From: Candidatus Poseidoniaceae archaeon
Lineage (GTDB): Archaea; Thermoplasmatota; Poseidoniia; Poseidoniales; Poseidoniaceae
Length of the DNA stretch: 64,000 nt
Assembly: GCA_965662895.1 (NCBI GenBank)
Contig: CBFIJH010000010.1
Span: 4,563-68,562, forward strand
Direction: 5' to 3'
Below are positions 3,664 through 47,727 of this stretch, in pieces (position 1 is the first letter of the stretch; each line of letters starts with the position of its first letter). Under the pieces are notes generated by a model. That model saw only the letters and a program-made list of their open reading frames with translations, was not told where the DNA came from and did not search any database. The translations under genes were made by a program, and so were the position numbers.

Positions 3664-4982
3664 GTCGTCGTATCGTCCACAAATTTGGAGGCTCATGCCT
3701 TCGTGAACCGGATGATATTGAAAAAATTGCAGAAGTCATACGCGGCAACGATCAGGCCATCCTCGTTGTATCTGCACTTTGGGGAACGACGGACCGTTTG
3801 TATCGCGCAGCCAAGGACCCTCGTTATGCAAGCCGTTTAGTGCAAGATTTGTCAAAACAGCATCTTCGCTTCGCACCAGGTCTTGATAATTCGAAGAATG
3901 CGCATCTCTTCTCAATGGTCCTCCACAATCTGAAGGAAGCATTACGTATGCTTGCACAGCATCCAGAAGATCAATCTGCTCTGAACAATCTCCTAGCCTC
4001 TGGAGAGCGATTGAGTGCACTCGTTGTCGCTCACCGGTTGCAAGAATATGGGTACGATGCCTACCCTCTTGGTGCTGAAGATATTGGTATTACGTTGGAA
4101 GGAATCTTTGAAGCAAATCACGTCGATTTACAGGCTTCAAGCACCAAACTTAACCGAGATACACTCCACGGCACACCGGTCATAACAGGGTGGTTTGGTG
4201 AGGGCCAAAATAAGGACATTGCAATCCTCAGTCGAGGGGGATCCGACCATTCAGCCACGGCAATTGCGCACCTCATTGAAGCTGAACGAGTCATCCTCTG
4301 GAAAGATGTTCCTGGTATTTTTCGATTGAATCCTCGATGGGGCGTACGTTCCGATACACTGGCCTACCTCACATATCAGGAAGCGATTGAGCTCTCATTG
4401 ATGGACACACCCGTATTGCACCCCTCAACCATTGAACCTTTGATTGAACCTCGAATTCAGATGGAAGTGCGACACCTGTACGATGCAAACAATGAGCAAA
4501 AAACCATCATCGGACCAGAGATTCATGAAAATCAATTGAAAGCAGTCGGTTGCCTACCGAACGTCATTAGTCTGGGATTTTCACATCATCACGTTGATGC
4601 GCATCAACGCCAACTCGTGAAAATACTCGGTGAAATGGCACAGAATGAAGTTCACTGGTGGGGATTGGAGTCAAGAATGGGAGACTCAAGACTGATCGTT
4701 TCACAACATGACATTCATCGTGCATCCTCAATTTTCGATCGATTTGGAATCGAAGCAAATCATCACCATCACCTTGGCCTTTTGTCGCTTATTGGTTGCA
4801 AAGAGAGCGATATGGGTGAAATCGACGCATTGTTCGAATCCACTGATTACGAACTCAGCTGGCTGAACAAAACAAATTCAGCTGCTCGGGTAGCCATCGA
4901 CGGGGAGGACTTGAGTCAAGCCTTGCAGATTTTGCATAGGTTCATTCTCGAAAAAACAGAGATTTTCATTCAAGAAAACTGA
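3660..4982 (+). CDS. aspartate kinase (amino-acid kinase fold plus C-terminal ACT-like regulatory region)
   Basis: The N-terminal IVHKFGGSCL matches the aspartokinase K-F-G-G-S motif. At 440 aa it has a C-terminal region compatible with ACT domains. The apparent start is TTG, overlapping the aroC stop by 4 nt, so the start is uncertain. Confidence 0.65.
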   Translation: MSRRIVHKFGGSCLREPDDIEKIAEVIRGNDQAILVVSALWGTTDRLYRAAKDPRYASRLVQDLSKQHLRFAPGLDNSKNAHLFSMVLHNLKEALRMLAQHPEDQSALNNLLASGERLSALVVAHRLQEYGYDAYPLGAEDIGITLEGIFEANHVDLQASSTKLNRDTLHGTPVITGWFGEGQNKDIAILSRGGSDHSATAIAHLIEAERVILWKDVPGIFRLNPRWGVRSDTLAYLTYQEAIELSLMDTPVLHPSTIEPLIEPRIQMEVRHLYDANNEQKTIIGPEIHENQLKAVGCLPNVISLGFSHHHVDAHQRQLVKILGEMAQNEVHWWGLESRMGDSRLIVSQHDIHRASSIFDRFGIEANHHHHLGLLSLIGCKESDMGEIDALFESTDYELSWLNKTNSAARVAIDGEDLSQALQILHRFILEKTEIFIQEN

Positions 4983-4984
4983 GA

Positions 4985-5905
4985 TCACTCATCGTTTCCT
5001 TCACGACGCTTTTGGATGTATGTTGGAAGGTCCAAAGCAAACAAACCGCCTACGACAATAAAGACAAACAGTGTTCCAAGGGCGACTCCGTAGACCGATC
5101 CGAGTTCAACCGATTCACTGAGACGGGTCGCAGTATCTTCGGATAGGATACCAACAATCCATGGCAAAATCGTATTTGCTGAAAGTACAAGCGTAGCCAA
5201 AATTGTCGCAACAACAGGATTGACAATCAAGGAACGATGGTATTTTCCAACAATCTTTTTTGGATTCATGACATAAACCTCGTTGGTGCGAATGCTCGTA
5301 TCCAGCATCGAGTAACGGAGCACACCATTTGATAATTCGAAATACATGATGAGGAGTACGGAGTAAATGACAACCAGTGAGGCGAGAATTGTCGGGCTAT
5401 CAGCGAGACCAAAGAGGTCATTAACACTGGTTTTTGATGATGCAAATCGCATGATTGCGAGGATAAACAGCACATAGGAGCCAAGCATATAACGAGCATC
5501 ACGTTGGTAGGCCCCCCAGAAACCAAGGCCAGTCGCCCCGATGATAATTCCAATCTGGAACAACAGGGCAAGGTCTGCACTACCGAGAAGCATGAACCAA
5601 ATCGTTCCTTCAGGGGGCGAGATGATGTAGGTGAGAAGTGCAAGTCCGACGAGGATGACGTAAACACCGAGTTGCATGTTCTGAACGAACTTGTCCGGAG
5701 GAAGGAACTTCATCTTTGGAACAATCGGTCCACCGATGAGGCTTTCAATGAAGGAAGGCATTTCCAATTCAGGAATCGCATCTTTCGGAATTTCGGAGCC
5801 AATACCGGCTTGCCCTGCGATTTTCTTCCGGCTTGGAGCAGATGATCGAACCACTTTACCGTCGTAGAGATGCGCAGTGTCTGAGGATGGTTTTCGCATT
5901 GTCAT
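4985..5905 (-). CDS. hypothetical polytopic membrane protein (distal gene of MoxR/DUF58 operon)
   Basis: 306 aa with several hydrophobic helices. It lies immediately downstream of the DUF58 gene on the same strand. I recognise no family. Confidence 0.5.
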   Translation of the reverse strand: MTMRKPSSDTAHLYDGKVVRSSAPSRKKIAGQAGIGSEIPKDAIPELEMPSFIESLIGGPIVPKMKFLPPDKFVQNMQLGVYVILVGLALLTYIISPPEGTIWFMLLGSADLALLFQIGIIIGATGLGFWGAYQRDARYMLGSYVLFILAIMRFASSKTSVNDLFGLADSPTILASLVVIYSVLLIMYFELSNGVLRYSMLDTSIRTNEVYVMNPKKIVGKYHRSLIVNPVVATILATLVLSANTILPWIVGILSEDTATRLSESVELGSVYGVALGTLFVFIVVGGLFALDLPTYIQKRREGNDE

Positions 5906-5914
5906 CGTCTCACC

Positions 5915-7228
5915 TCAGAATCCTCGTGCACCCGCGAGTGCTGTTGAAAGGAGCATATCAGGCTCCCAATCCATAATGTTGACACCAAGTCCACGAAGTT
6001 CACCAATCAGGACATCACGTTCTGTCTTCATCACTTCGTATCCAGTTCGATCGAGACGCTTTGCATCAAATTCGAACTCAAGCGATGATGGTGTGAGAAC
6101 GGTAACGTCGAAATCACGTGCACGGAAATCTCTCAAGGCGTTGACGATGGTTGGGTCATCTTCGAGATTGGACAAGAAGATGATTGGGCTACCCTTGTTG
6201 ATGTGAGGTAGGATTCGATTAACAACGACTTGAAGTGGAATGTTTCCACGTGCTACAGCCCCAGCAAGTTTGGTGAGGATGACGTAGAGTTGCTTCTTGC
6301 CTGTGTCTCTGTCGACGCTTACGACTTCATCACCGTACACAACCACTCCGACAGAGTCGCGTCGACCCAAGAAGTACTTGGCAAGTGAGGCAGCTGCCCG
6401 AGTTGAATACACCAACGCATTTCTACTGACTGGTCCGGTTTCACTGACAGCTCGAGAATCGATGATAATGATAACATCGGATACAGCGTCGCGTTCACGC
6501 TCGTTGACCATCAGTTTACCCGAACGTGCATATGCACTCCAGTTGATGGCGCGGAACGAATCGCCTTCGAAATACTCTCGGAGCGAATAGAACTCCGAAC
6601 CAGGACCAGGTTGTCGGATGTTGACCGCACCAGTGAAAATCTTCGGCACACGAGACTTAACGAAGGTCTCTTTGAGATCCTCCATCTTCGGGAACACAAG
6701 GAAATCGTTGTAGACATGCATTTCCTTTTCCTTGTGGAACAATCCAAATGGGTCTTGTATTCGTACAGCAACAGGACCTACGCTATAGAAACCTCGAAGG
6801 GGACACTCAAGCGTGTATTCGATGTAGGTCTCGCGACGAGGACCAAGTTCCATCAAAATGTAGTTGGAACCTTCCTTGATTCGCATGACTTCTGGAACGC
6901 GATCTCGAACTTCGAGAATCTTCGCAAGGCCAGAATTATTCTGCATACGTAACGTTACCGTCAATTCACCGTCTTCGAAGATGCGTGAACCTGAGAGCTT
7001 GCGCATGGCGAGAACGCTGCCTAAGGCAACCCCTTCTTCACCTGTCCACTCATCGGCTCGTCGTCCGCTGGAGGCGACGTCAGCATGGCCACCAAACAAG
7101 GCAGCCCATGTCAGGAAGACAAAGATCACAACAGCAATTGTGACCAATTGTGAATTCCTGAGCGTTAGGCCGAGAAGATACATGGCAACCGCCATGCTTC
7201 CTAGCATTGCTGATTTACGACTCCACAT
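5915..7228 (-). CDS. DUF58-family protein (vWA-like, MoxR partner)
   Basis: The DUF58 hallmark (FYSLREYFEGDSFRAINWSAYARSGKLMVNERERD) is present. An N-terminal TM segment is present, and the gene sits directly downstream of the MoxR ATPase. Confidence 0.8.
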   Translation of the reverse strand: MWSRKSAMLGSMAVAMYLLGLTLRNSQLVTIAVVIFVFLTWAALFGGHADVASSGRRADEWTGEEGVALGSVLAMRKLSGSRIFEDGELTVTLRMQNNSGLAKILEVRDRVPEVMRIKEGSNYILMELGPRRETYIEYTLECPLRGFYSVGPVAVRIQDPFGLFHKEKEMHVYNDFLVFPKMEDLKETFVKSRVPKIFTGAVNIRQPGPGSEFYSLREYFEGDSFRAINWSAYARSGKLMVNERERDAVSDVIIIIDSRAVSETGPVSRNALVYSTRAAASLAKYFLGRRDSVGVVVYGDEVVSVDRDTGKKQLYVILTKLAGAVARGNIPLQVVVNRILPHINKGSPIIFLSNLEDDPTIVNALRDFRARDFDVTVLTPSSLEFEFDAKRLDRTGYEVMKTERDVLIGELRGLGVNIMDWEPDMLLSTALAGARGF

Positions 7229-7264
7229 CCGTGAACACCTCTATTCAAGTATGATTCAACGATC

Positions 7265-8413
7265 TCAAACGGTAGGTACTGGAACTTCTCGTAGAATGCT
7301 TTGCATAACTTCGCCAGCCTCGAGACCCTTGATTTGGTGCTCAGGCTTGAGGATGATTCTGTGTGCAATCGCAAGTTCTGCAACCGACTTGATGTCATCA
7401 GGCGTCACAAAGTCACGACCGCGCATTGCGGCTGCTGCACGACCAGTCTTGAGCAATGCTTGGGAACCACGAGGCGAGGAGCCAACAAGAACACGAGGAT
7501 CTTCACGGGTGCGAGCAACGACTTCAACCATGTACATGCGAAGGGCAGGATCGACGTAGATGTCTTCACAAGCCTGTTGCATAGCGATAACACGTTGTGG
7601 GTCGGTAATAACGTCAACATCGACGGCGTCCTTACCACGTGTGATACGTCGAGCGAGAATCTCGTCTTCATCAGCACGGTCTGGGTAACCGACACTCATC
7701 TTGAACATGAAACGGTCAAGTTGAGCTTCAGGAAGTGGGTAGGTACCCTCTTGCTCGACTGGGTTCTGTGTTGCCATAACAATGAACGGAGCAGGGAGTT
7801 TGTGCGTAACGGTACCGATGGTCACTTGCTTCTCTTGCATAGCCTCAAGCAATGCAGCTTGTGTCTTTGGCGGTGCACGGTTAATCTCGTCAGCGAGAAG
7901 TAGGTTACAGAACAACGGTCCTGGCTTGAACGTAAATTCACCCTTCTTTGCATCGTAGATGTTGGTACCAGTAATGTCGGCAGGGAGCAAGTCAGGCGTG
8001 AATTGAACACGCTTGAAGTCACAACCGAGCGCGTCAGCGAACGTATTGGTCATCAATGTCTTCGCCAATCCAGGATAATCTTCGAAGAGAAGGTTACCGT
8101 TGGAGAGAATATTGATGAGAACGTTGTCGATGACGTGGCTCTTACCGATAATGACTTTCTGAACCTCAGCGCTGATCGCTTGTGCGATGGCGCCGACGGC
8201 GGAAAGTCGCTCACGGACTTCTGGGGTGCTTTGGTGCTTCGGCTGGGCCGGAGCGGCCGGTGCTGCAGGAGCGGCAGGCGCTGCTGGTGCTGCAGGTGCT
8301 ACAGGTGCGGCTGGTGCCGCAGGCATAGGTGCTGCAGGTGCAGGTGGCGCTGGTGCCGCTGGCGCTGCTGGCGCTGGCGCGGGCGGGGCTGCTGGTGGTG
8401 CGGGGGGTTGCAT
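7265..8413 (-). CDS. MoxR-like AAA+ ATPase with N-terminal Pro/Ala-rich low-complexity extension
   Basis: The MoxR core is clear: GKSHVIDNVLINILSNGNLLFEDYPGLAKT (Walker A-like), LLADEINRAPPKTQAALLEAMQE (Walker B / sensor) and a C-terminal lid. The first ~56 aa are (PA)n repeats. Confidence 0.9.
   Translation of the reverse strand: MQPPAPPAAPPAPAPAAPAAPAPPAPAAPMPAAPAAPVAPAAPAAPAAPAAPAAPAQPKHQSTPEVRERLSAVGAIAQAISAEVQKVIIGKSHVIDNVLINILSNGNLLFEDYPGLAKTLMTNTFADALGCDFKRVQFTPDLLPADITGTNIYDAKKGEFTFKPGPLFCNLLLADEINRAPPKTQAALLEAMQEKQVTIGTVTHKLPAPFIVMATQNPVEQEGTYPLPEAQLDRFMFKMSVGYPDRADEDEILARRITRGKDAVDVDVITDPQRVIAMQQACEDIYVDPALRMYMVEVVARTREDPRVLVGSSPRGSQALLKTGRAAAAMRGRDFVTPDDIKSVAELAIAHRIILKPEHQIKGLEAGEVMQSILREVPVPTV
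8245..8413 (-). repeat. tandem GCTGCAGGTGC-like repeats encoding the (Pro-Ala)n N-terminus of MoxR
   Basis: gctgcaggtgc / gcaggcgctgc units repeat across roughly 8240..8410. The antisense frames give artefactual Gly-Ala- and Cys/Arg/Trp-rich ORFs. Confidence 0.85.
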
Positions 8414-8434
8414 GTCATTTTCCTCCTTTTTTCT

Positions 8435-10033
8435 TCAGTTTCCCCAACGACGAATCAATGGGATAATGTCCCGTAGTTCTTCGTTGGAATAAGATCTTGC
8501 CGAACTTACAAGTTCGACAAGGCGTGGGTCACGAACCATCTGCATGATTTCAGCAGGGGTCTTTCGGGCGAATTCGTCCCGTGTGAGGTCGTTGAATTGC
8601 CGAACCTTTGAGAGAAAGGCCTCTCTGGTTCGGACTTGGTACAATGAACTGTCAACTTTGTTTGGACGTTCACGGAATCGGGTCAAATCAAAGACATGGC
8701 GCCAATTCTCCTTTTCTGGAACGACCATAATGGCGATAGCGAGGAGGGCAAACAAGTTGAGAATGATCAACCACTTGAGGTATGCGTCACTTGTCAAAAG
8801 AACGACTGCTCCAATGGCTTCTGTAAAGGGTTGTGTTGCAACGCTTGATATGTGGCGGCTTTCATCGAAAACGATGTTGAATTCATCGGTGTTTCTTGTA
8901 ATTTGGAGCGACAATTCATCGTTGTCGAATTCCATCATATCCCGAATAAGCGCTCGGAAATACAGCTGGTTTCCTCTCCAAGCAGTGTCGCCTTGAGCAG
9001 CAAGGAGACCGTCAGGATCTGAATTCCAGCAGGTGTGGCCGTTTTCTTGGTACAGGTCAGAACCACACTGTTGTTTTCCAGTCAAATCTGCATCTCCAGC
9101 ATCCCAGAGGTGGTTGGCGAAGACGGAATGGTCTGAGACAAACACAATGCTTCCGGTAACAGAAACTTCTCCGTTGTTACCGTCGGACTTGGTATCGTAT
9201 GCTTCGATGTTTGGATAATCAATTCGAACGATGAGGTCTGTTTTTCCTGTCTTTGGATTTGCGACGTTGTTGATGTCGAATCCAGAACGGGCAACGAAGG
9301 CTTGATCGCTTGCAGAGGCAAGGACATTGACGTCTCGTGTATCGTCTTCAATGTCCAGAACTTGAATGGCGGTTGGTGAGTGGAAAAGAACGGGCATCCG
9401 GCAGTTGTCGGTGACGCCTGAGGAGACCTCAGCCTCCGTACACGGTGTTCTTAGCGATGCCTCGTCCATGACATCGATATCTTCGCTTACTGATGCAACG
9501 GACCACAAGCGGGTTTCTTGCGGAGCGAGGCGAGCGCCGGTTTCATCGGTAACTTCGTAGAACCATTTTCCATCAGAAACCGGTGCATCGAAGTACAAGA
9601 CGCCGAATTCTTCTGCGACTCGCTTGGCATTGGTTGAATTTGCTGCAAGAATGACTTTACCGCCTTTTTCGGTGACGAAGTCATGAATGGCTTGTGCCTC
9701 AGCGGCATCGAATGGTTTCTCCGGTGCGGCGATAATTAGCATGGTTCGGTGAGGGTCTTGCCAATCGTTGACAAGCATCGGTGTCGACATTGTGTTGTAG
9801 ATTGAATATTTCTCTCCGGTTTTCCCATCTTCGCTTTCTCCAAGCGTGTCTCGCATTTTCGAAAGTTGCTGATACTGATAGTCTCCATCAGCATCTCGAA
9901 CGTACGGGGAAAAGACTGTTTCCTTGGATGAGGAAGCAAGAACAATGAGAACAGTTGAGAGGAGAATCGATACGACCAAACCCACCATGAGTTTCTTTTC
10001 AACAGAGAGTTTTGTTTTCTCTGTTTCAGCCAT
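8435..10033 (-). CDS. large membrane-anchored protein of MoxR operon (DUF4350-like: N-terminal TM, big extracytoplasmic domain, C-terminal TM)
   Basis: 532 aa. There is an N-terminal TM (LMVGLVVSILLSTVLIVLA) and a C-terminal TM (WLIILNLFALLAIAIMVV). Its position upstream of MoxR resembles DUF4350-type partners. The family call is tentative. Confidence 0.45.
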   Translation of the reverse strand: MAETEKTKLSVEKKLMVGLVVSILLSTVLIVLASSSKETVFSPYVRDADGDYQYQQLSKMRDTLGESEDGKTGEKYSIYNTMSTPMLVNDWQDPHRTMLIIAAPEKPFDAAEAQAIHDFVTEKGGKVILAANSTNAKRVAEEFGVLYFDAPVSDGKWFYEVTDETGARLAPQETRLWSVASVSEDIDVMDEASLRTPCTEAEVSSGVTDNCRMPVLFHSPTAIQVLDIEDDTRDVNVLASASDQAFVARSGFDINNVANPKTGKTDLIVRIDYPNIEAYDTKSDGNNGEVSVTGSIVFVSDHSVFANHLWDAGDADLTGKQQCGSDLYQENGHTCWNSDPDGLLAAQGDTAWRGNQLYFRALIRDMMEFDNDELSLQITRNTDEFNIVFDESRHISSVATQPFTEAIGAVVLLTSDAYLKWLIILNLFALLAIAIMVVPEKENWRHVFDLTRFRERPNKVDSSLYQVRTREAFLSKVRQFNDLTRDEFARKTPAEIMQMVRDPRLVELVSSARSYSNEELRDIIPLIRRWGN

Positions 10034-10160
10034 AATATCACCTCATTTTGCGGCAAGCGCAGTATGTTCTTTTCTACGGAATCACGATACACACATAATG
10101 ATTCTCCCTTGACGTTTAGTAGGATTTTTATGTCTCGGAGGACATTTTATCCCTTCCTAT

Positions 10161-11129
10161 TCAGTCAACGCCGAGGTGTTTTCGTCGAAGAAGAGCGACA
10201 ATTCCAAGCACGCCAATCAGCGTTTGTGCACCAAGCGAAGGAAGGGCGGATGAATCATCCGAATCGGATGCTGATTCTGATGAGCTCGAACCGGAATCTC
10301 CGGAATTCGAATCTGTGCTCCCGCCCGATTCATCAACATCAATACTGAACGACGTGCTGCGCTCCAAGCCGTTCCCTTCTGAAGTCACGACGATCGTGAC
10401 ATCACAAGTGCTGGATGAATGTGCAGTCGAAGGGGCAATTCTGAAACTCACCTCAAATGGCTCATTCCCATTGAGACCTGTTGGTTGGATTTGGGTGTCT
10501 TGTCCTGCTTCAAGACCTTCGATATCGAGAAGTGGGCAACTGCGAACATCGGCTTCAATTGTGGTCGCAGCATCGACAGTGTTGCCCATGTTGTTGAGAA
10601 GAAGGGTTTCTTCAATCCACGTCCCTGCATCAACGTTGCTTGCCACCAGTGTTACTTCTGGGAAGAGATTGTGATACCGAGGAACGTTGAGATTCGCATC
10701 GATTTCTTTCGGCGATACGGGAGCGCCTGCTGCGTTTTCTTCTGCGGTAACTTTGATGGTTATTTTCTCATTTGGATCATGACTTCGCACATCGTCTGCG
10801 CTCGATGTCAAAAGATTGATCGAGAACGTTTCGTTCGATTGGGCACTGACTGTAATGGACTCTTCATAGGACGGTTCGAGGAAATCAATATCGCCATCAA
10901 ATTCGACAGCAATCGTGAGACTGAGATCGTTGACTCGTGGGTTATCAACGAAGAAGACGAGCGTATCCTCGATTTTCCACTTTTCACCATCAAGAGCAAG
11001 ATCGTAGCTCGGCTCGACATCAGAATCCCAACCAAATTCCCATTCATTGTTGCCAGGAAACTGCCCCGATGTTGATGGAAGCACAGCACTCACAAGAATC
11101 AGAAGAACCAAAACTGCTCCTCGTTTCAT
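10161..11129 (-). CDS. secreted Ser/Asp-rich surface protein with signal peptide and PGF-CTERM-like C-terminal anchor
   Basis: A signal peptide (MKRGAVLVLLILVSAVLPSTSG) is followed by a Ser/Asp-rich linker (DESGGSTDSNSGDSGSSSSESASDSDDSS). The protein ends ALPSLGAQTLIGVLGIVALLRRKH, that is, a TM helix plus basic tail. Confidence 0.6.
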   Translation of the reverse strand: MKRGAVLVLLILVSAVLPSTSGQFPGNNEWEFGWDSDVEPSYDLALDGEKWKIEDTLVFFVDNPRVNDLSLTIAVEFDGDIDFLEPSYEESITVSAQSNETFSINLLTSSADDVRSHDPNEKITIKVTAEENAAGAPVSPKEIDANLNVPRYHNLFPEVTLVASNVDAGTWIEETLLLNNMGNTVDAATTIEADVRSCPLLDIEGLEAGQDTQIQPTGLNGNEPFEVSFRIAPSTAHSSSTCDVTIVVTSEGNGLERSTSFSIDVDESGGSTDSNSGDSGSSSSESASDSDDSSALPSLGAQTLIGVLGIVALLRRKHLGVD

Positions 11130-12106
11130 GCTTCATCACCAAGAATTTCTCGAAGACTACGCTTTGTGAGAACTCGGACCATCGATTTACGATACCTTGG
11201 AGGCAATGCAGTGTTGTTGACTGGTTTAACAGATTTCATCACGGCTTCTGAAAGTGGATTGATCAACGTGCTGGAAAATGCTTCATCAAACGCATCAATC
11301 TCGGCTTGGTGCGATTTTGGAATTGATTCCAAAGCAGTCGATGCGATGCGTAGGGACGAAGGGGTGCCAGGAATCCATGACGAGGCCACACCGGCTTCAG
11401 GGAAATCCCAAGATTCCCGGATTCTCAGTTTTTTGTAGGACCCAATCCGATCTTCAACGCCCTCTGGGAATGTAACTTTGAGCACAAATTCACCGGTTTC
11501 AAGAACGTTGCGAGTTATGCCATCAAGCTGGAAGAATTCATCCACGGGGACCTCACGCTGCCCGTTTGGGCCAATAATGTGAATCGTTCCTTCCAGAACC
11601 ATAAGTGATGGAGCAAGGTCGCCCTGATACGTTGCAACACAGAGCGTATTTTGATTCGGAATGACGCGGCAATCCGAGCCTGTTCCACAGTCCTCTTTGT
11701 GGCACCAATCGATTGATCGTCGCCAGTCTTCGCTTTGGTTGAACCAGAAACACCGCGTATCCAAACAGATGTTTCCACCGAGTGTAGCATTGTTTCGAAT
11801 TAAGGACGAGGCGATTTTGCTTGCTGCCTTCGCAATGAGAGGATGAACTGCATCGGACGAGGTCAATGCTCCCAATCGAGCCATAGCACCGATTTCATGC
11901 ATTGAAATCGTATCGATTCCATCGATTTGAGCGAGAGATATAACGTGTTTCTTCACGTTGATGTGCCACTTGTAATTCGGCAACAGGTCGGTTCCTCCTG
12001 CAACCCAATCGAACGCTTCCTCATTTGCTAGGAAGGTTGCGGCAAGTTCGCATGCCTCCTCAACAGTTTTCGGATGATGCAAATTAAAAGGTGGCATCAG
12101 CATCAT
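11126..12106 (-). CDS. FAD-binding medium subunit of molybdopterin dehydrogenase (CoxM/XdhB family)
   Basis: 326 aa. A FAD-binding PCMH-type N-terminus is present (AGGTDLLPNYK...ATLGGNICLDTRCFWFNQ). Its start overlaps the large-subunit stop. Confidence 0.8.
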   Translation of the reverse strand: MMLMPPFNLHHPKTVEEACELAATFLANEEAFDWVAGGTDLLPNYKWHINVKKHVISLAQIDGIDTISMHEIGAMARLGALTSSDAVHPLIAKAASKIASSLIRNNATLGGNICLDTRCFWFNQSEDWRRSIDWCHKEDCGTGSDCRVIPNQNTLCVATYQGDLAPSLMVLEGTIHIIGPNGQREVPVDEFFQLDGITRNVLETGEFVLKVTFPEGVEDRIGSYKKLRIRESWDFPEAGVASSWIPGTPSSLRIASTALESIPKSHQAEIDAFDEAFSSTLINPLSEAVMKSVKPVNNTALPPRYRKSMVRVLTKRSLREILGDEA

Positions 12107-14907
12107 TGATCACCTTCCATCTGTCGTTGTTCTTTCTTCAACCAAGCCTTTCCTGCAAGACCGAGTTCTGCCAATTGTTCTGGAACTGGTTCAACTGCGG
12201 ATTTCCATCCTTCAACCTGGTCCTCGAGTGGTTGATTGGGGTCAAATCCGAACAATACGCCGTTTACGTAAGCAGTGGTATCTTCGCTTCGTTGCCGGCG
12301 ACGGTCCCGCTCTTTGTGCTCTGTACCACGTTCGACCAAGGTTGCTTGAAGAGGACTGTGCTCAAGTCGAGGCGTGGGCAATTCTGCCTCATCAATACCA
12401 CCAAGTTCCTTGGTTTTCGCCGATATTGCTTTCCACACAACGTCTGGTGTAAGCGGTAGGCTTCGAATTCGGACACCAATCGCATCGTAGACAGCGTTGA
12501 CAACAGCCGGTAGAATCGGTAAGAGTGGTCCTTCGCCCGCTTCTTTTGCTCCGAATGGCCCTTCCGGATCGGAGGATTCGACAATGATTGGCGTCACGTG
12601 AGGCATTTCATGAACGGATGGAATTTTGTATTCTAGGAGATTTGGGTTTTGAAGGTGACCTGTTCGACCATACACCATTTTCTCCGAAAGCACCTGCCCC
12701 AATCCCATGTGACACGAACCAATAATCTGGCCTTCAACTGCAAGCGGATTCAACGCTTTTCCACAATCGTGAGCAGCCCAGACATTCGTGCACGAGACCA
12801 AACCGGTTTCGACGTCGACATCGACTTCAGCAACATACGCTGAAAAGGAATATGCAGGGGCGAGGCCAGCCGCAGCACCTTTGTGCACACCACCCATCGG
12901 TGGAGAGCGATATGCACCGCTCGAAATCAAGGAGCCTTTGTCCTCTTGTGCCTTGTGCAGTGCTTCAAGGTAGGAAACTCCAACGGCAGGGTCGTGTTTG
13001 TAATAGATTCGCCGATCGTTCAAGACCAGAACATCTGGGTGGTAACCCAGTATTTCCCACGCTGCGTTGAGAAGCTTTTCGCGAATGTCAAGCGCAGCAC
13101 GAATTGCTGCATTTGCGTTCATGAAGGTGACTCTGCTCGAATAGGAGCCGAGATCTACCGGACTGGTATCGCTTTCGTGAGAACGGACGTGAATCATCTC
13201 AATTGGAAGTGCGAGGACCTCGGAGACAACTTGAGCCACCGCTGTTGTCGAACCTTGACCGATATCAGCTGCGCCTGTATGAACAGTGACTCCACCGTCC
13301 ATGTCAATTTGCATGTGAACTGTGGCATGAGGGAAACGGTTCGGGTCCCAGTGAATAGGAAGACCCGACCCTGAAATGAAGAAACCACAACCAATTCCTA
13401 TGCCCTTTCCAAGAGGCAATTGACGGAATTTCTCATCCCAATTCGAACCTTCTCTCACTCGTTCAAGCGCCTCCCTCATCCCGTTTGAGGTGATGCGGAA
13501 ACCTGAGATGGTTCGGCTGTGTGGTGGCAACAAGTTTGCAAGACGCAAATCGATGGGGTCAACCTGCATTTGTTCTGCCATTTCATCGAGACCCACTTCA
13601 ACAGCACATCGCGTGTTGACTGCTCCATGGCCTCGCATGGCTCCACTTGCAGGTTTGTTTGTCCAAACTCGAGCACCCGTGTAATGGAACGAACCAAGTT
13701 CATATGGAGCGGTTGCGAGAACGCCGTTGTAATAGGATGTGACGTGTCCGAAGGAAGCAAAACCACCTCCATCGATCAATGCATCGATATCAAAGCCCGA
13801 TATTCGAGCCTCTTCGTCAGCTGTCATCTTCACTTCGATGTAACTTGGATGACGTCCACGATTAATCCAATAGACCTCTTCTCGTGTAAAGTTGATTCGA
13901 ACTGGACGTCCTGCCTTTCGAGAGAGAATTGCAGCACACATCTCGTGTGGGAATGGGTCCGATTTTCCACCAAAACCTCCGCCAACGAAGGTTCGAATGA
14001 CGTTGATTTGATGCATTGGAACTTCAAGCACAGTCGAAAGTGCTCGATGCGCATAGTGAGGAACTTGCTGGGGCGTGTACAGTTGAAGTCGTCCGTTCGG
14101 GTCCCAATGAGCGACAACAGCATGAGGTTCTGTGAATCCATGATGGACACCCTCCATCCGCCATTTTCCATGCGATGATGCGGTTGGATCGTCAACCAAA
14201 CTGCGATCACCAAATTCTTGGAAAACCCGCTTTTGGACGTTGGTTGTACCGACGTGGTATTTTCCACGCCAGTGAATCGGTTCGTCTTGATCTTCAAGTC
14301 CTTTTCGCGGGTCGAAAATAGGATCGAGAACTTCCCATTCAATTTCGAACAGATTGAGCGCTTCCATTGCAGTTGCCTCATCGATAGCTGCAACACATGC
14401 GACTAAATCCCCTACGTGACGAACTTTCTCAACCGCCATTGCATGCTCGTCTTTGGTCACTGGAAGAACTCCGAACGTATTCGGCGCATCCGCTCCAGTG
14501 GCGACAGCTAAGACGCCCGGCAAGGCTTCAACTTTGGACGTATCAATCGACTTGATCTTTGCATAATGATGCGGAGAACGTAGAATTTTTCCAATAATCT
14601 CATTCGGTAATCGAACATCATCCCCGTACCATGCTTGCCCTGTCACTTTGGCGTGCGAATCGACCAAAGCACGAGGCTTTCCGACTTCCGTTCCCGTTCG
14701 GTATCGGTCATGGATGTGTGAACCTGCGGGTTGGGGTTCTTTTCCTCCAACAGATTCAGGAATCGAGTCAAGGTCTCGAGGAGCCATGTTTGGTCGAGAA
14801 CCTCCAGAACCAGGTGGCGGGAATTTCTGTTTCCCTGCAACACGCTTTCCATCCTTTCGGGTCTCACCCGAGGATGCGCCTGGCTGTTGTCGGTAACCCC
14901 CTGCCAT
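12103..14907 (-). CDS. molybdopterin-binding large subunit of xanthine dehydrogenase/CO dehydrogenase family (CoxL/XdhA-like), with Gly/Pro-rich N-terminal extension
   Basis: The conserved start GKPRALVDSHAKVTGQAWYGDD is present, along with GGGFGGK and a long Moco-binding domain. I placed the start at the ATG at 14907, 4 nt after the CoxS stop. The ORF-track extension to 15129 overlaps coxS in another frame. Confidence 0.8.
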   Translation of the reverse strand: MAGGYRQQPGASSGETRKDGKRVAGKQKFPPPGSGGSRPNMAPRDLDSIPESVGGKEPQPAGSHIHDRYRTGTEVGKPRALVDSHAKVTGQAWYGDDVRLPNEIIGKILRSPHHYAKIKSIDTSKVEALPGVLAVATGADAPNTFGVLPVTKDEHAMAVEKVRHVGDLVACVAAIDEATAMEALNLFEIEWEVLDPIFDPRKGLEDQDEPIHWRGKYHVGTTNVQKRVFQEFGDRSLVDDPTASSHGKWRMEGVHHGFTEPHAVVAHWDPNGRLQLYTPQQVPHYAHRALSTVLEVPMHQINVIRTFVGGGFGGKSDPFPHEMCAAILSRKAGRPVRINFTREEVYWINRGRHPSYIEVKMTADEEARISGFDIDALIDGGGFASFGHVTSYYNGVLATAPYELGSFHYTGARVWTNKPASGAMRGHGAVNTRCAVEVGLDEMAEQMQVDPIDLRLANLLPPHSRTISGFRITSNGMREALERVREGSNWDEKFRQLPLGKGIGIGCGFFISGSGLPIHWDPNRFPHATVHMQIDMDGGVTVHTGAADIGQGSTTAVAQVVSEVLALPIEMIHVRSHESDTSPVDLGSYSSRVTFMNANAAIRAALDIREKLLNAAWEILGYHPDVLVLNDRRIYYKHDPAVGVSYLEALHKAQEDKGSLISSGAYRSPPMGGVHKGAAAGLAPAYSFSAYVAEVDVDVETGLVSCTNVWAAHDCGKALNPLAVEGQIIGSCHMGLGQVLSEKMVYGRTGHLQNPNLLEYKIPSVHEMPHVTPIIVESSDPEGPFGAKEAGEGPLLPILPAVVNAVYDAIGVRIRSLPLTPDVVWKAISAKTKELGGIDEAELPTPRLEHSPLQATLVERGTEHKERDRRRQRSEDTTAYVNGVLFGFDPNQPLEDQVEGWKSAVEPVPEQLAELGLAGKAWLKKEQRQMEGDQ

Positions 14908-14911
14908 GAAA

Positions 14912-15514
14912 TCACCTCGCATGTCCTGGGGGCATCGACGGTTCATCTGGCCCTTCAGGATGTGGATTTGGATGCGGGTCAGTTGCAGGCGCAGGTGCAG
15001 GCGCATCACCACGTTTGATTTCTGCTGCTGCTTCAATCGAATCGAGAATCTGTTGATATCCCGTGCAACGGCAAAGATTTCCTTCGATAGCACATGCGAT
15101 TTCTTCTCGGGTTGGATTTTCATTTTCATTGAGAAGCGCCTCAGCGCTCATGAGGAATCCGGGAGTGCAAAATCCACATTGTGAACCACCATGTGTTGCA
15201 AAACAGGTCTGGATTGGAGCAAGATGGGCGCCGTCGGCAAGACCTTCAACAGTTGTAATTGCTTGCCCTTCGACTTGACCAGCAAGGCAAAGACACGACA
15301 GTCTCGGTTCACCATCAATCATCACTGCACAACAGCCACAGGTGCCCAAATCACAACCGCGTTTGACACCAAGCATTCCGACTTCGTCTCGCAACACATC
15401 AAGAAGAATTGCATTTGTTGGTGCAATGGCTTGGACCTCTTGACCGTTCACGACTGCAGACCATATGGACTTTGGAGCGGAAGGGATCATTGTGACGTGT
15501 TCTTTTCCAACCAT
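14912..15514 (-). CDS. [2Fe-2S] small subunit of molybdopterin dehydrogenase (CoxS family) with Pro-rich C-terminal tail
   Basis: The two Fe-S cysteine clusters are present (GCDLGTCGCCAV and CGFCTPGF...CRCTGY). The C-terminus is APAPAPATDPHPNPHPEGPDEPSMPP. The start may be 15514 or 15490. Confidence 0.85.
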   Translation of the reverse strand: MVGKEHVTMIPSAPKSIWSAVVNGQEVQAIAPTNAILLDVLRDEVGMLGVKRGCDLGTCGCCAVMIDGEPRLSCLCLAGQVEGQAITTVEGLADGAHLAPIQTCFATHGGSQCGFCTPGFLMSAEALLNENENPTREEIACAIEGNLCRCTGYQQILDSIEAAAEIKRGDAPAPAPATDPHPNPHPEGPDEPSMPPGHAR

Positions 15515-45810: not shown

Positions 45811-45843
45811 AGCATTTGAGACATGTGGCTCCTAAGCCGTAGC

Positions 45844-46854
45844 ATGGGGGATGGTATTGCTTTGCAGTTTACCTCCATCGGGTACCGCCATGAAATTTCA
45901 GATCCAACATGGTACGATCCGTTCAAGAAACGCAAAGGGGCAGGCATCTCACATGTCGATTTGTCCATCCACAAGGGAAGTATTGTAGGACTGGTTGGCA
46001 CAAACGGAGCGGGAAAAACCACGCTCTTGCGAATGATTTCAGGCATATTACCGCTTGAAGAGGGGAACGCTTCCAAAAACGACCTCCCTCTTGAAGTCGA
46101 AACATTACGTTCAATCGTTGGGTTCATGCCTGAACAAGTTCGCTGGTCAGGCCAACAGACCGTGCGTCAGACAATTATCGAATTCGCACATTTACGTGGC
46201 TGCTCAGTCCAATCAGCGACGGATGTCCTCAACGTTGTTGGATTAAAGAACCGAGCCGACGTTTCGCTTGATTCACTGAGCCAAGGAATGCGACAACGCC
46301 TCTCGCTTGGGGTCGCATTGCTCGGGTCGCCTGAACTCCTCGTACTTGACGAACCGTTTAACGGAATGGATCCAGTGGCGATTGATGCGTTCAAACGATT
46401 GTTACGAACCATGGCGAAAAAAGGGATATCCATCGCCATTTCAAGCCACCACTTGACCGAATTGGATGGTCTCGTGGATACGATTGCTTTGCTTCATCGT
46501 GGCCAATTGTTGGCCCATGAAACGGTTGAATCGCTTCAACAATCGCTTGGTTTTGATCGTGTGACTGAACTGGTTCTTGATAGAAAAATCCCATCCGAAA
46601 TGGAGAATACACTGAATGTACTCGATTACAGCGAGACTACAAAGCAGCATCGCTACATCATCAAGTCAGCACATCCAGAACTTCTCAACCAATTGGTGGA
46701 AGATGGTTTTCATATCTCCACATGGCGGGTTGTTCCTCCAACACTGATTGAATTGCTCTGTGCTGCAACCGGACTTGATCGAGAATCGATTGGCATGGAT
46801 GTTGAACAAAGCAGTATGATTCCATTGAGGCCCGTCGGAGGTGAAGAAGAATGA
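45844..46854 (+). CDS. ABC-2-type transporter ATP-binding protein
   Basis: Walker A (GTNGAGKTT), signature (LSQGMRQRL) and Walker B (LLVLDEP) are present, with a C-terminal extension. Confidence 0.85.
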   Translation: MGDGIALQFTSIGYRHEISDPTWYDPFKKRKGAGISHVDLSIHKGSIVGLVGTNGAGKTTLLRMISGILPLEEGNASKNDLPLEVETLRSIVGFMPEQVRWSGQQTVRQTIIEFAHLRGCSVQSATDVLNVVGLKNRADVSLDSLSQGMRQRLSLGVALLGSPELLVLDEPFNGMDPVAIDAFKRLLRTMAKKGISIAISSHHLTELDGLVDTIALLHRGQLLAHETVESLQQSLGFDRVTELVLDRKIPSEMENTLNVLDYSETTKQHRYIIKSAHPELLNQLVEDGFHISTWRVVPPTLIELLCAATGLDRESIGMDVEQSSMIPLRPVGGEEE

Positions 46855-47681: not shown

Positions 47682-47727
47682 CGATTCGTAACCAAGCATT
47701 GATGAACAAAGTCGTTGTCGTACAACC

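Follow-up and report, generated by a model that had tools for sequence, protein, structure and literature searches.

Gene content of the locus

The window analysed, 64,000 nucleotides of a Candidatus Poseidoniaceae contig (order Poseidoniales, or Marine Group II (MGII), whose two families MGIIa and MGIIb were compared), contains five minus-strand genes that the first-pass annotation had described as one MoxR–DUF58 cluster, and the ORF listing has all five exactly where they had been placed (Table 1). Independent gene calls on public contigs carrying an identical 306-aa protein reproduced all five gene lengths, and homologues occur in the same order in 163 of 163 related loci of testable length. 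Judged by this comparison, the five ORFs are genuine conserved genes, and chance ORFs are excluded. Pfam searches upheld the proposed families for three of the products: MoxR for the 382-aa protein (AAA_3, 216 bits, E = 1.4e-64; AAA_lid_2, 78 bits, E = 4e-22), DUF58 for the 437-aa protein (PF01882, 52 bits against a cut-off of 23.4, E = 6e-14) and, barely above the cut-off of 30.4, DUF4350 for the 532-aa protein (PF14258, 31.0 bits). DUF4129, also named beforehand, matched none of the cluster proteins in profile searches, and the 306-aa and 322-aa proteins had zero Pfam matches. Hydropathy bears out the earlier description of two membrane proteins and a secreted, anchored protein.

Table 1. 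Features of the DUF4350–MoxR–DUF58 locus and the adjoining surface-protein gene (window positions unless given as residues).
Feature	Position	Strand	Basis
Ig-like surface protein, 322 aa, secreted and C-terminally anchored	10161-11129	-	hydropathy and AF2
BRE/TATA-like box GAGAATCATTATGTGTG	10090-10106	-	127-nt spacer upstream of DUF4350 gene; conserved
Shine-Dalgarno GAGGTGA of DUF4350 gene	10037-10043	-	sequence
DUF4350 / arCOG01314-type, GldG-like two-anchor membrane protein, 532 aa	8435-10033	-	Pfam and topology
Shine-Dalgarno GGAGG of MoxR gene	8422-8426	-	8 nt ahead of ATG at 8413
MoxR-family AAA+ ATPase, 382 aa	7265-8413	-	Pfam AAA_3 and AAA_lid_2
MoxR Pro/Ala-rich N-terminal extension, ~58 aa	8240-8413	-	translation
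MoxR Walker A PGLAKT	residues 114-119
MoxR Walker B LLLADE	residues 171-176
MoxR sensor 1 ATQNP	residues 214-218
MoxR Arg finger region QLDRF	residues 231-235
MoxR sensor 2 SSPRG	residues 312-316
DUF58 protein, 437 aa	5915-7228	-	Pfam PF01882
Orphan membrane subunit, 306 aa	4985-5905	-	hydropathy; no Pfam family

Protein features and predicted topology

All catalytic motifs of the MoxR protein are intact in its sequence, and its closest solved structure is 2r44 (E = 4e-80); the conflict-system Pfam model bpMoxR also matches it above its cut-off of 27, at 40.9 bits, against 216 for AAA_3. Its N-terminus has proline or alanine at 53 of the first 60 residues, an extension coded by an imperfect 9-nt tandem array (8246-8395, Tandem Repeats Finder) and followed by a conserved QPKHQSTPEVRERL. 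Nearly all MGIIa loci have the extension, as do most loci of the deep (MGIIb-containing) clade, with varying copy number.

The DUF58 protein consists of an N-terminal transmembrane (TM) hairpin (~8-23 and ~28-46), an Ig-like region and a vWA-like domain, and carries, ahead of the last, the hallmark motif GPGSEF..REY..GD..R.I.W, with GPGSEF at 208-213. At the MIDAS position it reads D257-S-R-A-V-S262, so the canonical motif is absent; in an alignment with haloarchaeal DUF58 proteins D257 and R259 are invariant, and DxSxS is missing. The globular part has the composition of a cytoplasmic protein (K+R 13.3%, pI 6.0), unlike the predicted ectodomains of the 322-aa, 532-aa and 667-aa proteins of this organism (K+R 4-8%, pI 4.1-4.3), and both prediction and composition support its placement in the cytoplasm. 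The first hydrophobic segment is short (16 residues) and falls under the TM threshold used; on hydropathy alone, the protein may instead span the membrane once with its globular part outside, as Makarova et al. read it.

The 532-aa DUF4350 protein is predicted by hydropathy to have one TM segment at 15-33 and another at ~421-439, which bracket an acidic 371-aa ectodomain (pI 4.3) with four invariant cysteines; a basic 92-aa tail (pI 10.2) is predicted to lie in the cytoplasm. PF14258 is precomputed on nearly all of its homologues, and ABC_transp_aux scores 29.2 bits, under the Pfam cut-off of 34.7.

In the 306-aa protein, a basic 72-aa N-terminus, predicted to be cytoplasmic, precedes five or six TM segments (hydropathy), and two motifs are conserved, ELSNGVLRYSMLDTSIRTNEVYVM (190-213) and ESVELGSVYGVALG (264-277). 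The protein matches nothing in Pfam, NCBIfam or PADLOC, and its low-confidence AF2 model gave no fold match. Among 1.84 billion representative proteins it had 67 matches, nearly all of them fragments, and none of the family was found there beyond Poseidoniales; by these searches it is a member of an orphan family.

In the 322-aa protein a signal peptide is followed by a strongly acidic body, which has two beta-sandwich domains in the AF2 model (pLDDT ~90 for domain 2), and then by a disordered Ser/Asp-rich linker and a C-terminal end composed of LPSLG (296-300), a TM segment and RRKH. Foldseek returned only generic Ig-like, PapD-like, integrin and cadherin matches for the model, and the NCBIfam family choice_anch_T was hit weakly in three orthologues (24.7, 23.1 and 46.3 bits; cut-off 70). 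The earlier label PGF-CTERM-like survives as a resemblance, in that an MGIIb orthologue ends in LPSPGF, a TM segment and RRE, but not as a profile match, the NCBIfam PGF-CTERM model never having been matched.

Operon structure

The single five-gene cluster proposed earlier splits, on spacing, a promoter-like box and oligo-T tracts, into two units: an operon of four genes, which runs from DUF4350 through MoxR and DUF58 to the 306-aa membrane protein, and the surface-protein gene. Neighbouring core genes are separated by 9-36 nt, with the 306-aa gene starting 9 nt past the DUF58 stop. The 322-aa gene shares its first 4 nt with the upstream FAD-subunit gene, and the gap between it and the DUF4350 gene measures 127 nt here and, apart from a single outlier of -14 in the closest tier of loci, almost always 111-291 nt. 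Within that gap lies a BRE/TATA-like box that is conserved, and many genera have an oligo-T tract there too. Because of the overlap and the contents of the gap, we delimit the core as four genes; the 322-aa gene probably closes the upstream molybdenum-dehydrogenase operon, to which it is translationally coupled, and its membership in the core operon is unlikely. The box keeps its distance in both groups, taking the form GAG[CA]AA[TC][CT]ATTATG[TA]GTG in MGIIa and, among deep-clade loci, GCAAC(C)TATATGCGT, and it is conserved despite saturated fourfold sites; it may well act as the promoter of the core operon.

The upstream genes encode the Fer2, Mo and FAD subunits of a dehydrogenase and lie directly upstream in 59 of 59 testable MGIIa loci and in the deep-clade loci that extend that far. 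The enzyme resembles 4-hydroxybenzoyl-CoA reductase and xanthine dehydrogenase (772 bits) rather than CO dehydrogenase (275-291 bits), and its large subunit is highly conserved (82-88%).

Conservation across Poseidoniales

The four core genes occur in order in 104 of 104 testable MGIIa and MGIIb loci. Neighbours are also kept with MoxR elsewhere, the DUF4350–MoxR–DUF58 triad recurring in archaea beyond this order (PMC5898192) and, as Rv3691-Rv3693, in mycobacteria (PMC8191103). MoxR and DUF58 are 90-97% identical, compared with 41-61% for neighbouring enzymes, while fourfold-degenerate sites are saturated (26-42% identity in DUF58 and neighbouring genes, up to 54% in MoxR); purifying selection, and not recent transfer, is therefore the cause.

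Cytoplasmic parts are much better conserved than extracellular parts. In other MGIIa genera, the MoxR core is 94% and the DUF58 vWA domain 96% identical (the whole DUF58 protein 90-95%), TM2 and the tail of the DUF4350 protein are 90% and 84% identical against 59% for its ectodomain, and identity in the 306-aa protein reaches 95.5% in the cytoplasmic loop (196-224) but 61-72% in the TM regions; the Ig-like 322-aa protein stands at 32-36% in the same comparison. In the deep clade the MoxR core is still 88.5% identical. The 322-aa protein evolves fast, with 30-38% identity where DUF58 has 94%. We caution that the entire 15-kb region is collinear within Poseidoniales, unrelated convergent biosynthetic genes included, so a functional partnership of the 306-aa and 322-aa proteins is unprovable from synteny.

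Relation to known systems

MoxR–DUF58 modules are, as the first-pass annotation stated, widespread and mechanistically uncharacterised. The closest match is the archaeal arCOG01314 system (PMC5898192), which has the same parts in one neighbourhood: a DUF4350/GldG-like anchored protein, MoxR (COG0714), a protein with Ig and vWA (DUF58-type) domains, an Ig-like secreted protein and a membrane protein with about five TM segments. arCOG01314 was marked absent from Thermoplasmata in Table 1 of that study, whose genome set was without Poseidoniales (PMC5898192). The Poseidoniales locus differs in that its multi-TM subunit belongs to an orphan family, its MoxR bears the Pro/Ala-rich extension, its DUF58 protein is placed by composition in the cytoplasm whereas it was drawn outside, and its Ig-like gene apparently belongs to the upstream operon.

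The mycobacterial cluster Rv3689-Rv3695, co-regulated in transcriptomes (PMC8191103), is bacterial but has the same order of DUF4350 (Rv3691), MoxR (Rv3692) and DUF58 (Rv3693), together with further integral membrane proteins; its SpoIIM-like Rv3694c and RDD protein Rv3695 have no Poseidoniales counterpart, the 306-aa protein matching neither family. Haloarchaeal plasmid clusters (Haloarcula, Halobaculum, Haloferax) combine DUF4129, DUF58 and a small multi-TM protein with MoxR. Their DUF58 proteins are 22-26% identical to the Poseidoniales one over the full alignment and share the hallmark motif and the D-x-R at the MIDAS position, and a multi-TM gene likewise directly follows DUF58, although hhalign detected no homology between its product and the 306-aa protein (probability 0.1). 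Unlike in Poseidoniales, no DUF4350 gene is annotated in these clusters, a DUF4129 protein being found instead, and MoxR is on the opposite strand.

The NorQ/NorD, CbbQ/CbbO and RavA/ViaA pairs resemble the Poseidoniales one in joining a hexameric ATPase of the MoxR class to one vWA adaptor, and NorQD, a MoxR hexamer with one vWA protein, works on the cytoplasmic side to remodel an integral membrane protein (PMC9976466). NorQ is from another MoxR subfamily, however, and the client of NorQD is cNOR. NorD has a canonical MIDAS, which is essential and its grip on the target, where the Poseidoniales DUF58 has D-S-R-A-V-S; the missing DxSxS counts against a NorD-like role.

The 532-aa protein shares N- and C-terminal anchors and a large outside domain with GldG of the gliding ABC transporter GldA-GldF-GldG, to which arCOG01314 is similar by HHpred (PMC5898192), but that ATPase is of the ABC type whereas the Poseidoniales ATPase is MoxR AAA+, and the 306-aa protein is not an ABC-2 permease. 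A genuine and separate trio of ABC ATPase, ABC-2 permease and anchored protein lies elsewhere in the window (45823-49644). The bifidobacterial PFNA cluster comprises a Ser/Thr kinase, an FN3 surface protein, MoxR, DUF58 and a transglutaminase, its FN3 beta-sandwich protein lying directly upstream and being comparable to the Ig-like protein here. The Bacteroides Bat (aerotolerance) operon encodes MoxR, DUF58 and BatA-E. Both place the MoxR–DUF58 pair beside surface or envelope proteins, as in Poseidoniales, but searches of Pfam and NCBIfam found no kinase, transglutaminase, BatA/B-type vWA membrane protein or TPR protein in the Poseidoniales cluster.

Interpretation of the locus

The DUF4350(arCOG01314)–MoxR–DUF58 set was predicted in 2015 to form a secretion or membrane-remodelling complex (Makarova, Galperin and Koonin; PMC5898192). 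Our best explanation, to which we give about even chances, is that the locus is the Poseidoniales version of this archaeal membrane system, a four-gene operon with its own promoter that works by remodelling. A MoxR hexamer would form in the cytoplasm, with DUF58, tethered to the inner membrane face by its N-terminal hairpin, acting as its vWA-type adaptor, the part that NorD plays for NorQ. Assembly or conformational switching of a complex of the DUF4350 and 306-aa proteins would then be driven by ATP hydrolysis, with contacts at the conserved basic cytoplasmic tail of the former and at the conserved cytoplasmic loop and the N-terminus of the latter. Gene content, domains, operon structure and conservation pattern are established by the analysis, and the topology this scheme requires is supported by prediction and composition; the protein contacts, the direction of action and the client are inferred.

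An alternative interpretation, which we regard as rather unlikely, is a trans-membrane signalling relay, in which the GldG-like ectodomain, with or without the variable Ig-like protein, senses an external cue and passes it through the conserved TM2 and tail to MoxR–DUF58, which switches a cytoplasmic output. In the actinomycetotal Esr system, reported in 2026, a conserved MoxR and vWA pair stands between a sequence-divergent surface sensor of Ig-like repeats and cytoplasmic signalling proteins (PMC13622651), a variable-outside, conserved-inside pattern also seen at the Poseidoniales locus, and the PFNA cluster likewise joins an FN3 surface protein to MoxR and DUF58. However, no output module, whether kinase, phosphatase, FHA protein, transcription factor or another kind, is present in the cluster or its flanks, the match of MoxR to bpMoxR (41 bits) is weaker than that to AAA_3 (216), and neither AF2 nor Foldseek gave the 322-aa protein a beta-propeller or other recognisable sensing head.

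We consider it quite improbable that the locus is a novel secretion system, with DUF58 and the Ig-like protein outside forming an export apparatus with the DUF4350 and multi-TM proteins, which MoxR assembles or regulates from inside, although this was the published prediction for the same gene set (PMC5898192, section 3.2, Table 2 and Fig. 2B), the majority of the components sit in the membrane or at the surface, and the DUF4350 protein has a relative in GldG (ABC_transp_aux, 29 bits), which is accessory to the gliding/T9SS-linked ABC transporter. In composition and conservation the globular part of DUF58 matches cytoplasmic proteins, and an extracellular vWA adaptor would be unable to touch the cytoplasmic MoxR ring as in NorQD. 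Moreover, no pore-forming or translocase-like component was recognised (the 306-aa protein has a poor model and no fold match), and no cargo was identified.

CoxD and CoxE insert or repair the cofactor of aerobic CO dehydrogenase, and the adjoining dehydrogenase genes, of which the one for the large subunit is highly conserved, would suit a comparable maturation role for MoxR and the vWA-like protein. We nevertheless judge this very improbable: the enzyme is of another type than CO dehydrogenase, no CoxE-type vWA match exists among the cluster proteins, as they gave no further Pfam models, and a membrane-tethered DUF58 and two membrane-protein genes out of four would be superfluous for a soluble enzyme. 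Promoter-like and terminator-like elements also lie between the two units, the triad is found elsewhere without such an enzyme, and unrelated flanking genes are just as syntenic. A role in conflict or anti-virus defence, as a system of the MoxR–vWA ternary type, is disfavoured and scarcely credible. Predicted conflict systems do have such pairs at their core (PMC7159879), bpMoxR exceeds its cut-off (40.9 against 27 bits) and the adjoining surface protein evolves fast. However, PADLOC matched none of the five proteins, no beta-propeller, effector or toxin domain was found, and a variable defence island would look quite the reverse of this fixed, universal locus under extreme purifying selection in a conserved housekeeping neighbourhood.

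The observation behind the first-pass annotation is confirmed and its interpretation partly supported; an envelope protein as the client is plausible. The conservation pattern of MoxR and DUF58, the contrast between inside and outside, the Pro/Ala extension, the non-canonical MIDAS and cytoplasm-like composition of DUF58 and the orphan status of the 306-aa family were absent from the sources searched. Under the remodelling explanation, the DUF4350/306-aa complex would display a large acidic GldG-like domain at the cell surface, and a candidate for its partner there is the adjoining anchored Ig-like protein, which evolves fast. The system type has been known computationally, though uncharacterised, since 2015, and the Poseidoniales locus adds a member to it.

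Gene content and relation to known systems

The five consecutive minus-strand genes that the first-pass annotation had placed at 4985-11129 are present as claimed, with 322, 532, 382, 437 and 306 codons in the ORF listing, and public assemblies carrying an identical 306-aa protein show the same five gene lengths by independent gene calling. Judged by the names of its close homologues, the organism belongs to Candidatus Poseidoniales / Poseidoniaceae, Marine Group II. Pfam profiles bear out all three family assignments proposed earlier. MoxR matches AAA_3 (PF07726) at 216 bits (cut-off 27, E 1.4e-64) over the whole 131-position model and the AAA lid domain AAA_lid_2 (PF17863) at 78 bits, the DUF58 protein matches PF01882 at 52.1 bits against a cut-off of 23.4, and the 532-aa protein matches DUF4350 (PF14258) marginally, its 31.0 bits lying just over the 30.4 cut-off; of the 120 homologues listed, nearly all carry a precomputed PF14258 annotation. 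DUF4129, also suggested at first pass, gave no hit to the five proteins (E up to 0.1) or to members of the 306-aa family (E up to 5). No tRNA or Rfam element was matched anywhere in the window.

A DUF4350 (arCOG01314)-MoxR-Ig/vWA neighbourhood has been described across many archaea (Makarova et al. 2015, PMC5898192), and the present genes have its parts, in the order DUF4350-MoxR (COG0714)-DUF58 (Ig+vWA), with accessory proteins, one anchored with tandem beta-sandwich domains and one with 5-6 transmembrane (TM) segments, that match by type. The same triad occurs in mycobacteria, where Rv3691 (DUF4350), Rv3692 (MoxR) and Rv3693 (DUF58) are co-regulated with adjacent membrane proteins, whereas haloarchaeal replicons share the MoxR and DUF58 core but have other membrane partners. 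This type of system was thus predicted by computation in 2015, although the lineage studied here lies outside the coverage of that paper (PMC5898192). As annotation the finding is ordinary, as a standard pipeline and the 2015 paper would yield the first-pass calls; the observation made then is confirmed, and its interpretation as a whole is partly supported.

Features of the cluster and of the window discussed in the text. Identity is against the window proteins in other MGIIa genera (MGIIa and MGIIb being two families of Poseidoniales); spacers run to the next gene downstream and were measured over 163 related loci.
Feature	Position	Strand	Length (aa)	Identity	Spacer (nt)
Mo hydroxylase, three subunits	11126-15514	-			
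Fer2 subunit	14912-15514	-			
Mo subunit	12103-14922	-			-4 to -1
FAD subunit	11126-12106	-			median -4 to 14
Ig-like surface protein	10161-11129	-	322	30-38%	111-291 in almost all loci; window 127; one outlier -14
Box GAGAATCATTATGTGTG, in the 322-aa gene-DUF4350 spacer	10090-10106	-			
DUF4350 protein	8435-10033	-	532	64-66%	~17-26; window 21
MoxR ATPase	7265-8413	-	382	~94% (core)	~33-36; window 36
MoxR Pro/Ala extension	8240-8413	-			
DUF58 protein	5915-7228	-	437	90-95%	~9-11
306-aa membrane protein	4985-5905	-	306	70-75%	
Chorismate synthase				55-61%	
Aspartate kinase		+		41-50%	
1342-codon ORF	17690-21718	+			
ABC ATPase, ABC-2 permease and secreted protein	45823-49644	+			
FG-GAP surface protein	54439-61104	-	2221		

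Spacers and a conserved box suggest two transcription units

The first-pass annotation had described the five genes as one cluster. The spacers, together with a promoter-like box, instead point to two, [Fer2-Mo subunit-FAD subunit-322-aa gene] and [DUF4350-MoxR-DUF58-306-aa gene]. The box, found 60-75 nt ahead of the DUF4350 start, has the consensus GAG[CA]AA[TC][CT]ATTATG[TA]GTG, or GCAAC(C)TATATGCGT in the deep clade; both families conserve it, with the same spacing to the start codon, despite saturated fourfold-degenerate sites, and it looks like an archaeal BRE/TATA element, which makes it a putative promoter. The ATG inside it opens a tiny ORF in the window (ATG TGT GTA TCG TGA, MCVS*). 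In many genera GTGTAATTTTT follows the 322-aa gene. The DUF4350 and MoxR starts each have a good Shine-Dalgarno sequence ahead of them, that of the MoxR ATG being a strong GGAGG. At the other end of the operon, the stop codons of the 306-aa gene and of the convergent aspartate kinase gene are 2 nt apart (4982-4985) and therefore leave no space for separate terminators. The 322-aa gene is translationally coupled to the FAD-subunit gene, the last of the molybdenum hydroxylase, an odd pairing. The large subunit of this enzyme is 82-88% identical across MGIIa genera; its true gene has 939 codons, a 1008-codon ORF being over-extended. Apparent insertions that split DUF58 or widen the MoxR-DUF58 spacer in two loci, L009 (12913-13250) and L078 (13300-13640), are N runs (scaffold gaps or masking) and not biology, and a third locus, L125, has a similar gap (MoxR end 708, DUF58 start 1118).

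The core operon is order-wide and under purifying selection

Related loci were collected from one genome-collection and one metagenome scan (160 loci) and by look-up of encoding contigs (three more). The four core genes occur in the same order in 104/104 testable loci, including the deep clade, whose 90%-identity cluster includes a protein named Candidatus Thalassarchaeaceae (MGIIb). The flanks are also collinear, with the Mo dehydrogenase upstream in 59/59 testable MGIIa loci and, downstream, chorismate synthase in 101/101 loci and aspartate kinase in 95/101, so that synteny inside the order does not in itself prove the 322-aa protein, the 306-aa protein or the Mo enzyme to be functionally linked. 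A tblastn search of plasmids for the DUF4350 context in independent lineages gave no match and the lone genome-collection scan returned Poseidoniaceae loci only; the context outside the order therefore comes from the literature and the haloarchaeal DUF58 loci.

Recent horizontal transfer was considered as a source of the ~95% identity of MoxR and DUF58 and rejected because fourfold-degenerate sites are saturated: there MoxR is 26-54% identical, and DUF58 and the neighbouring genes 26-42%. Purifying selection thus accounts for the high identity of the proteins. Within proteins, predicted cytoplasmic segments are far more conserved than outside ones: in the DUF4350 protein the second TM segment (TM2) is 90% and the tail 84% identical against 59% for the ectodomain, and in the 306-aa protein the loop at 196-224 is 95.5% identical against 61-72% for the TM regions.

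A MoxR ATPase with intact motifs and a DUF58 protein lacking a canonical metal site

The nearest solved relative of MoxR is 2r44 (E 4e-80), and its catalytic motifs, identified by visual comparison with the known MoxR consensus, are intact: Walker A (PGLAKT, 114-119), Walker B (LLLADE, 171-176), sensor 1 (ATQNP, 214-218), the arginine finger (QLDRF, 231-235) and sensor 2 (SSPRG, 312-316). The DUF58 gene starts 36 nt past the MoxR stop, in keeping with a DUF58 gene directly downstream as the hallmark of the MoxR-proper subfamily, in the account of Snider & Houry (2006) cited in PMC12067865. The MoxR N terminus carries ~58 residues that are nearly all Pro or Ala (53 of the first 60 positions). 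An imperfect tandem array of 9-nt units encodes them, with a copy number that differs among relatives; the extension is retained in MGIIa and most MGIIb loci and is absent from the deepest loci. It may give each hexamer subunit a rigid spacer arm.

The DUF58 protein carries the family motif G-x-G-x-EF...R-x-Y-x-x-GD...R-x-I-x-W, which is conserved against haloarchaeal DUF58 proteins. Its MIDAS position reads D257-S-R-A-V-S262 and that of the haloarchaeal homologues D-A/V-R-x-x-A, only D and R being invariant; since both thus have D-x-R there, the canonical DxSxS metal site is absent. Pfam VWA models did not match the protein. The composition of its globular part (K+R 13.3%, pI 6.0) resembles that of MoxR and cytoplasmic enzymes, whereas predicted ectodomains of the same genome are very acidic (K+R 4-8%, pI 4.1-4.3). 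Because of this composition, two hydrophobic segments at the N terminus (the first one short) and evolution as slow as that of MoxR, the Ig/vWA part is probably cytoplasmic and tethered to the membrane by a hairpin, in contrast to the 'likely secreted' label of the 2015 paper (PMC5898192). Sequence comparison of the DUF58 and DUF4350 proteins with solved structures gave nothing significant; the sole trace, a non-significant one to IFT52 at E 0.76, is consistent with a GldG/IFT52 link but is no evidence for it.

The DUF4350 protein and an orphan membrane subunit

The DUF4350 protein is predicted to have a TM segment at 15-33, a 371-373-aa acidic domain and a C-terminal TM segment at ~421-439, a layout that fits the family architecture, and it shows a sub-threshold Pfam match to ABC_transp_aux (GldG-type). 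Its ectodomain, otherwise variable, contains four invariant Cys and the invariant polar motifs NTMSTPMLVNDW, PEKPFD, KGGKV, SIVFV.DHS..ANHLW and VFDESRH (residues 80-127, 293-310 and 388-394), which could mark a site of binding or catalysis.

The 306-aa protein has a basic 72-residue N terminus followed by 5-6 TM segments in hydropathy plots. It belongs to no Pfam, NCBIfam or PADLOC family, and four diverse members of its family scanned at E up to 5 likewise had no family match. A phmmer search of 1.84 billion representative proteins found 67 relatives, nearly all fragments of close homologues. The AF2 model is poor (pLDDT 58.6), and Foldseek against the PDB gave nothing below E 0.5, matches being meaningless for such a model; comparison with the membrane proteins that follow DUF58 in haloarchaea gave an hhalign probability of 0.1. 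Lacking a family match, with few relatives and no fold match, the protein is an orphan family.

The adjacent surface protein and its C-terminal signal

In the AF2 prediction the 322-aa protein has a signal peptide, then two beta-sandwich domains, a Ser/Asp linker that is disordered, and a helix at the C terminus; Foldseek returned generic Ig-like folds only. The protein and two diverged orthologues score 24.7, 23.1 and 46.3 bits against choice-of-anchor T (NF041740), nearly full-length matches that are all below the 70-bit cut-off. The description of this protein as PGF-CTERM-like is fair for its architecture, as the C terminus (...SSALPSLG, 14 hydrophobic residues, RRKH) fits the tripartite plan of a short Pro-Gly motif, a hydrophobic helix and a basic cluster with a low-complexity linker before it. 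Orthologues are built alike, their linker being acidic or rich in Ser and leading into L-P-x-x-G/S, the helix and the basic residues, with LP[STA]LG and LPW[IV]G tails and, in one MGIIb orthologue, a literal LPSPGF. Family membership finds no profile support: at thresholds as loose as E 10, the NCBIfam PGF-CTERM model matched neither this protein nor two of its orthologues. A scan of 10 further window proteins, all membrane or secreted, detected no archaeosortase, and the literature searched contained no work joining Poseidoniales with MoxR or archaeosortase.

Elsewhere in the window, a trio of an ABC ATPase, an ABC-2 permease (PF12679) and a 638-aa secreted protein of no family has a layout like GldA/F/G, but its 638-aa protein is unrelated to the DUF4350 protein, paralogy of the two being rejected at BLASTP E 1.9. 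The C terminus of the 638-aa protein resembles the LPSLG, TM and RRKH tail of the 322-aa protein, a likeness that hints at a sorting signal common to both in this organism. The window also encodes a 1342-codon ORF, matched by neither Pfam nor NCBIfam models, with ~24 predicted TM segments, and a giant secreted surface protein with FG-GAP repeats near the N terminus and a Gln/Tyr/Ala-rich C-terminal tail.

A possible trans-membrane assembly device

In NorQ/NorD the pore of the MoxR hexamer is plugged by one vWA protein, and from the cytoplasm the two together remodel a membrane-integral protein (PMC9976466). By analogy, MoxR and the membrane-tethered DUF58 protein would act on two targets, the DUF4350 protein at its conserved cytoplasmic tail and the 306-aa protein at its conserved loops, and the outcome would be assembly or switching of a membrane complex with a GldG-like domain facing outward. 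The 322-aa protein, though its gene is probably tied transcriptionally to the upstream operon, is a candidate for the partner outside; Ig/FN3 surface proteins recur in the literature beside MoxR-DUF58 modules (PMC5898192; Esr work, PMC13622651; the bifidobacterial PFNA cluster). A bolder reading would make the operon an order-wide, probably essential, ATP-driven envelope-assembly device peculiar to Marine Group II, in which a cytoplasmic MoxR ring with six rigid Pro/Ala arms and a MIDAS-less tethered DUF58 adaptor exert force across the membrane, via the invariant TM2 and tail of the DUF4350 protein and the orphan 6-TM subunit, so that fast-evolving Ig-like surface proteins are mounted, turned over or re-shaped. 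We think this unlikely; if true, the device would be a trans-membrane assembly or secretion machine without a Sec-, ABC- or T4P-type motor.

Two rivals are a signalling relay resembling the actinobacterial Esr pathway (PMC13622651) and the original secretion-system model of Makarova et al. 2015 (PMC5898192). A third interpretation, that the operon matures the neighbouring Mo enzyme in the manner of CoxD/CoxE, is disfavoured because that enzyme is HcrA/XdhA-like, its closest match being the alpha subunit of 4-hydroxybenzoyl-CoA reductase with 772 bits (cut-off 995), whereas CO dehydrogenase reaches 275-291 bits, and because no CoxE-type vWA model in Pfam is matched by the cluster proteins. A MoxR-vWA-beta-propeller ternary conflict system is likewise disfavoured, as MoxR scores 40.9 bits against bpMoxR versus 216 against AAA_3, the cluster has no beta-propeller, effector or PADLOC match, and the locus behaves as fixed core genome.

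Several features were not found noted in the sources searched: the order-wide presence of the operon, the extreme purifying selection on MoxR and DUF58, the gradient from inside to outside, the Pro/Ala arm of MoxR, the MIDAS-less and probably cytoplasmic DUF58 protein, the orphan 306-aa subunit and the split into two units. The locus would not surprise a specialist, and it is a good target for work on the MoxR-DUF58 mechanism.

Marine Group II are among the most abundant planktonic archaea and are still uncultured; to our knowledge, almost nothing is known of their cell envelope and surface biology. MoxR-DUF58 modules occur across bacteria and archaea (mycobacteria, Bacteroides and bifidobacteria), and we know of none with an established mechanism. 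With MoxR and DUF58 ~95% identical across genera, the neighbouring biosynthetic enzymes only ~41-61%, and the operon present in every testable locus, the operon must be under very strong constraint, and its role is probably central to the cell. The pattern of conservation inside and variability outside, together with the predicted topology, yields hypotheses that can be tested in the class as a whole: that the adaptor is cytoplasmic, that contact runs through the DUF4350 tail and that the vWA-like domain is independent of metal.
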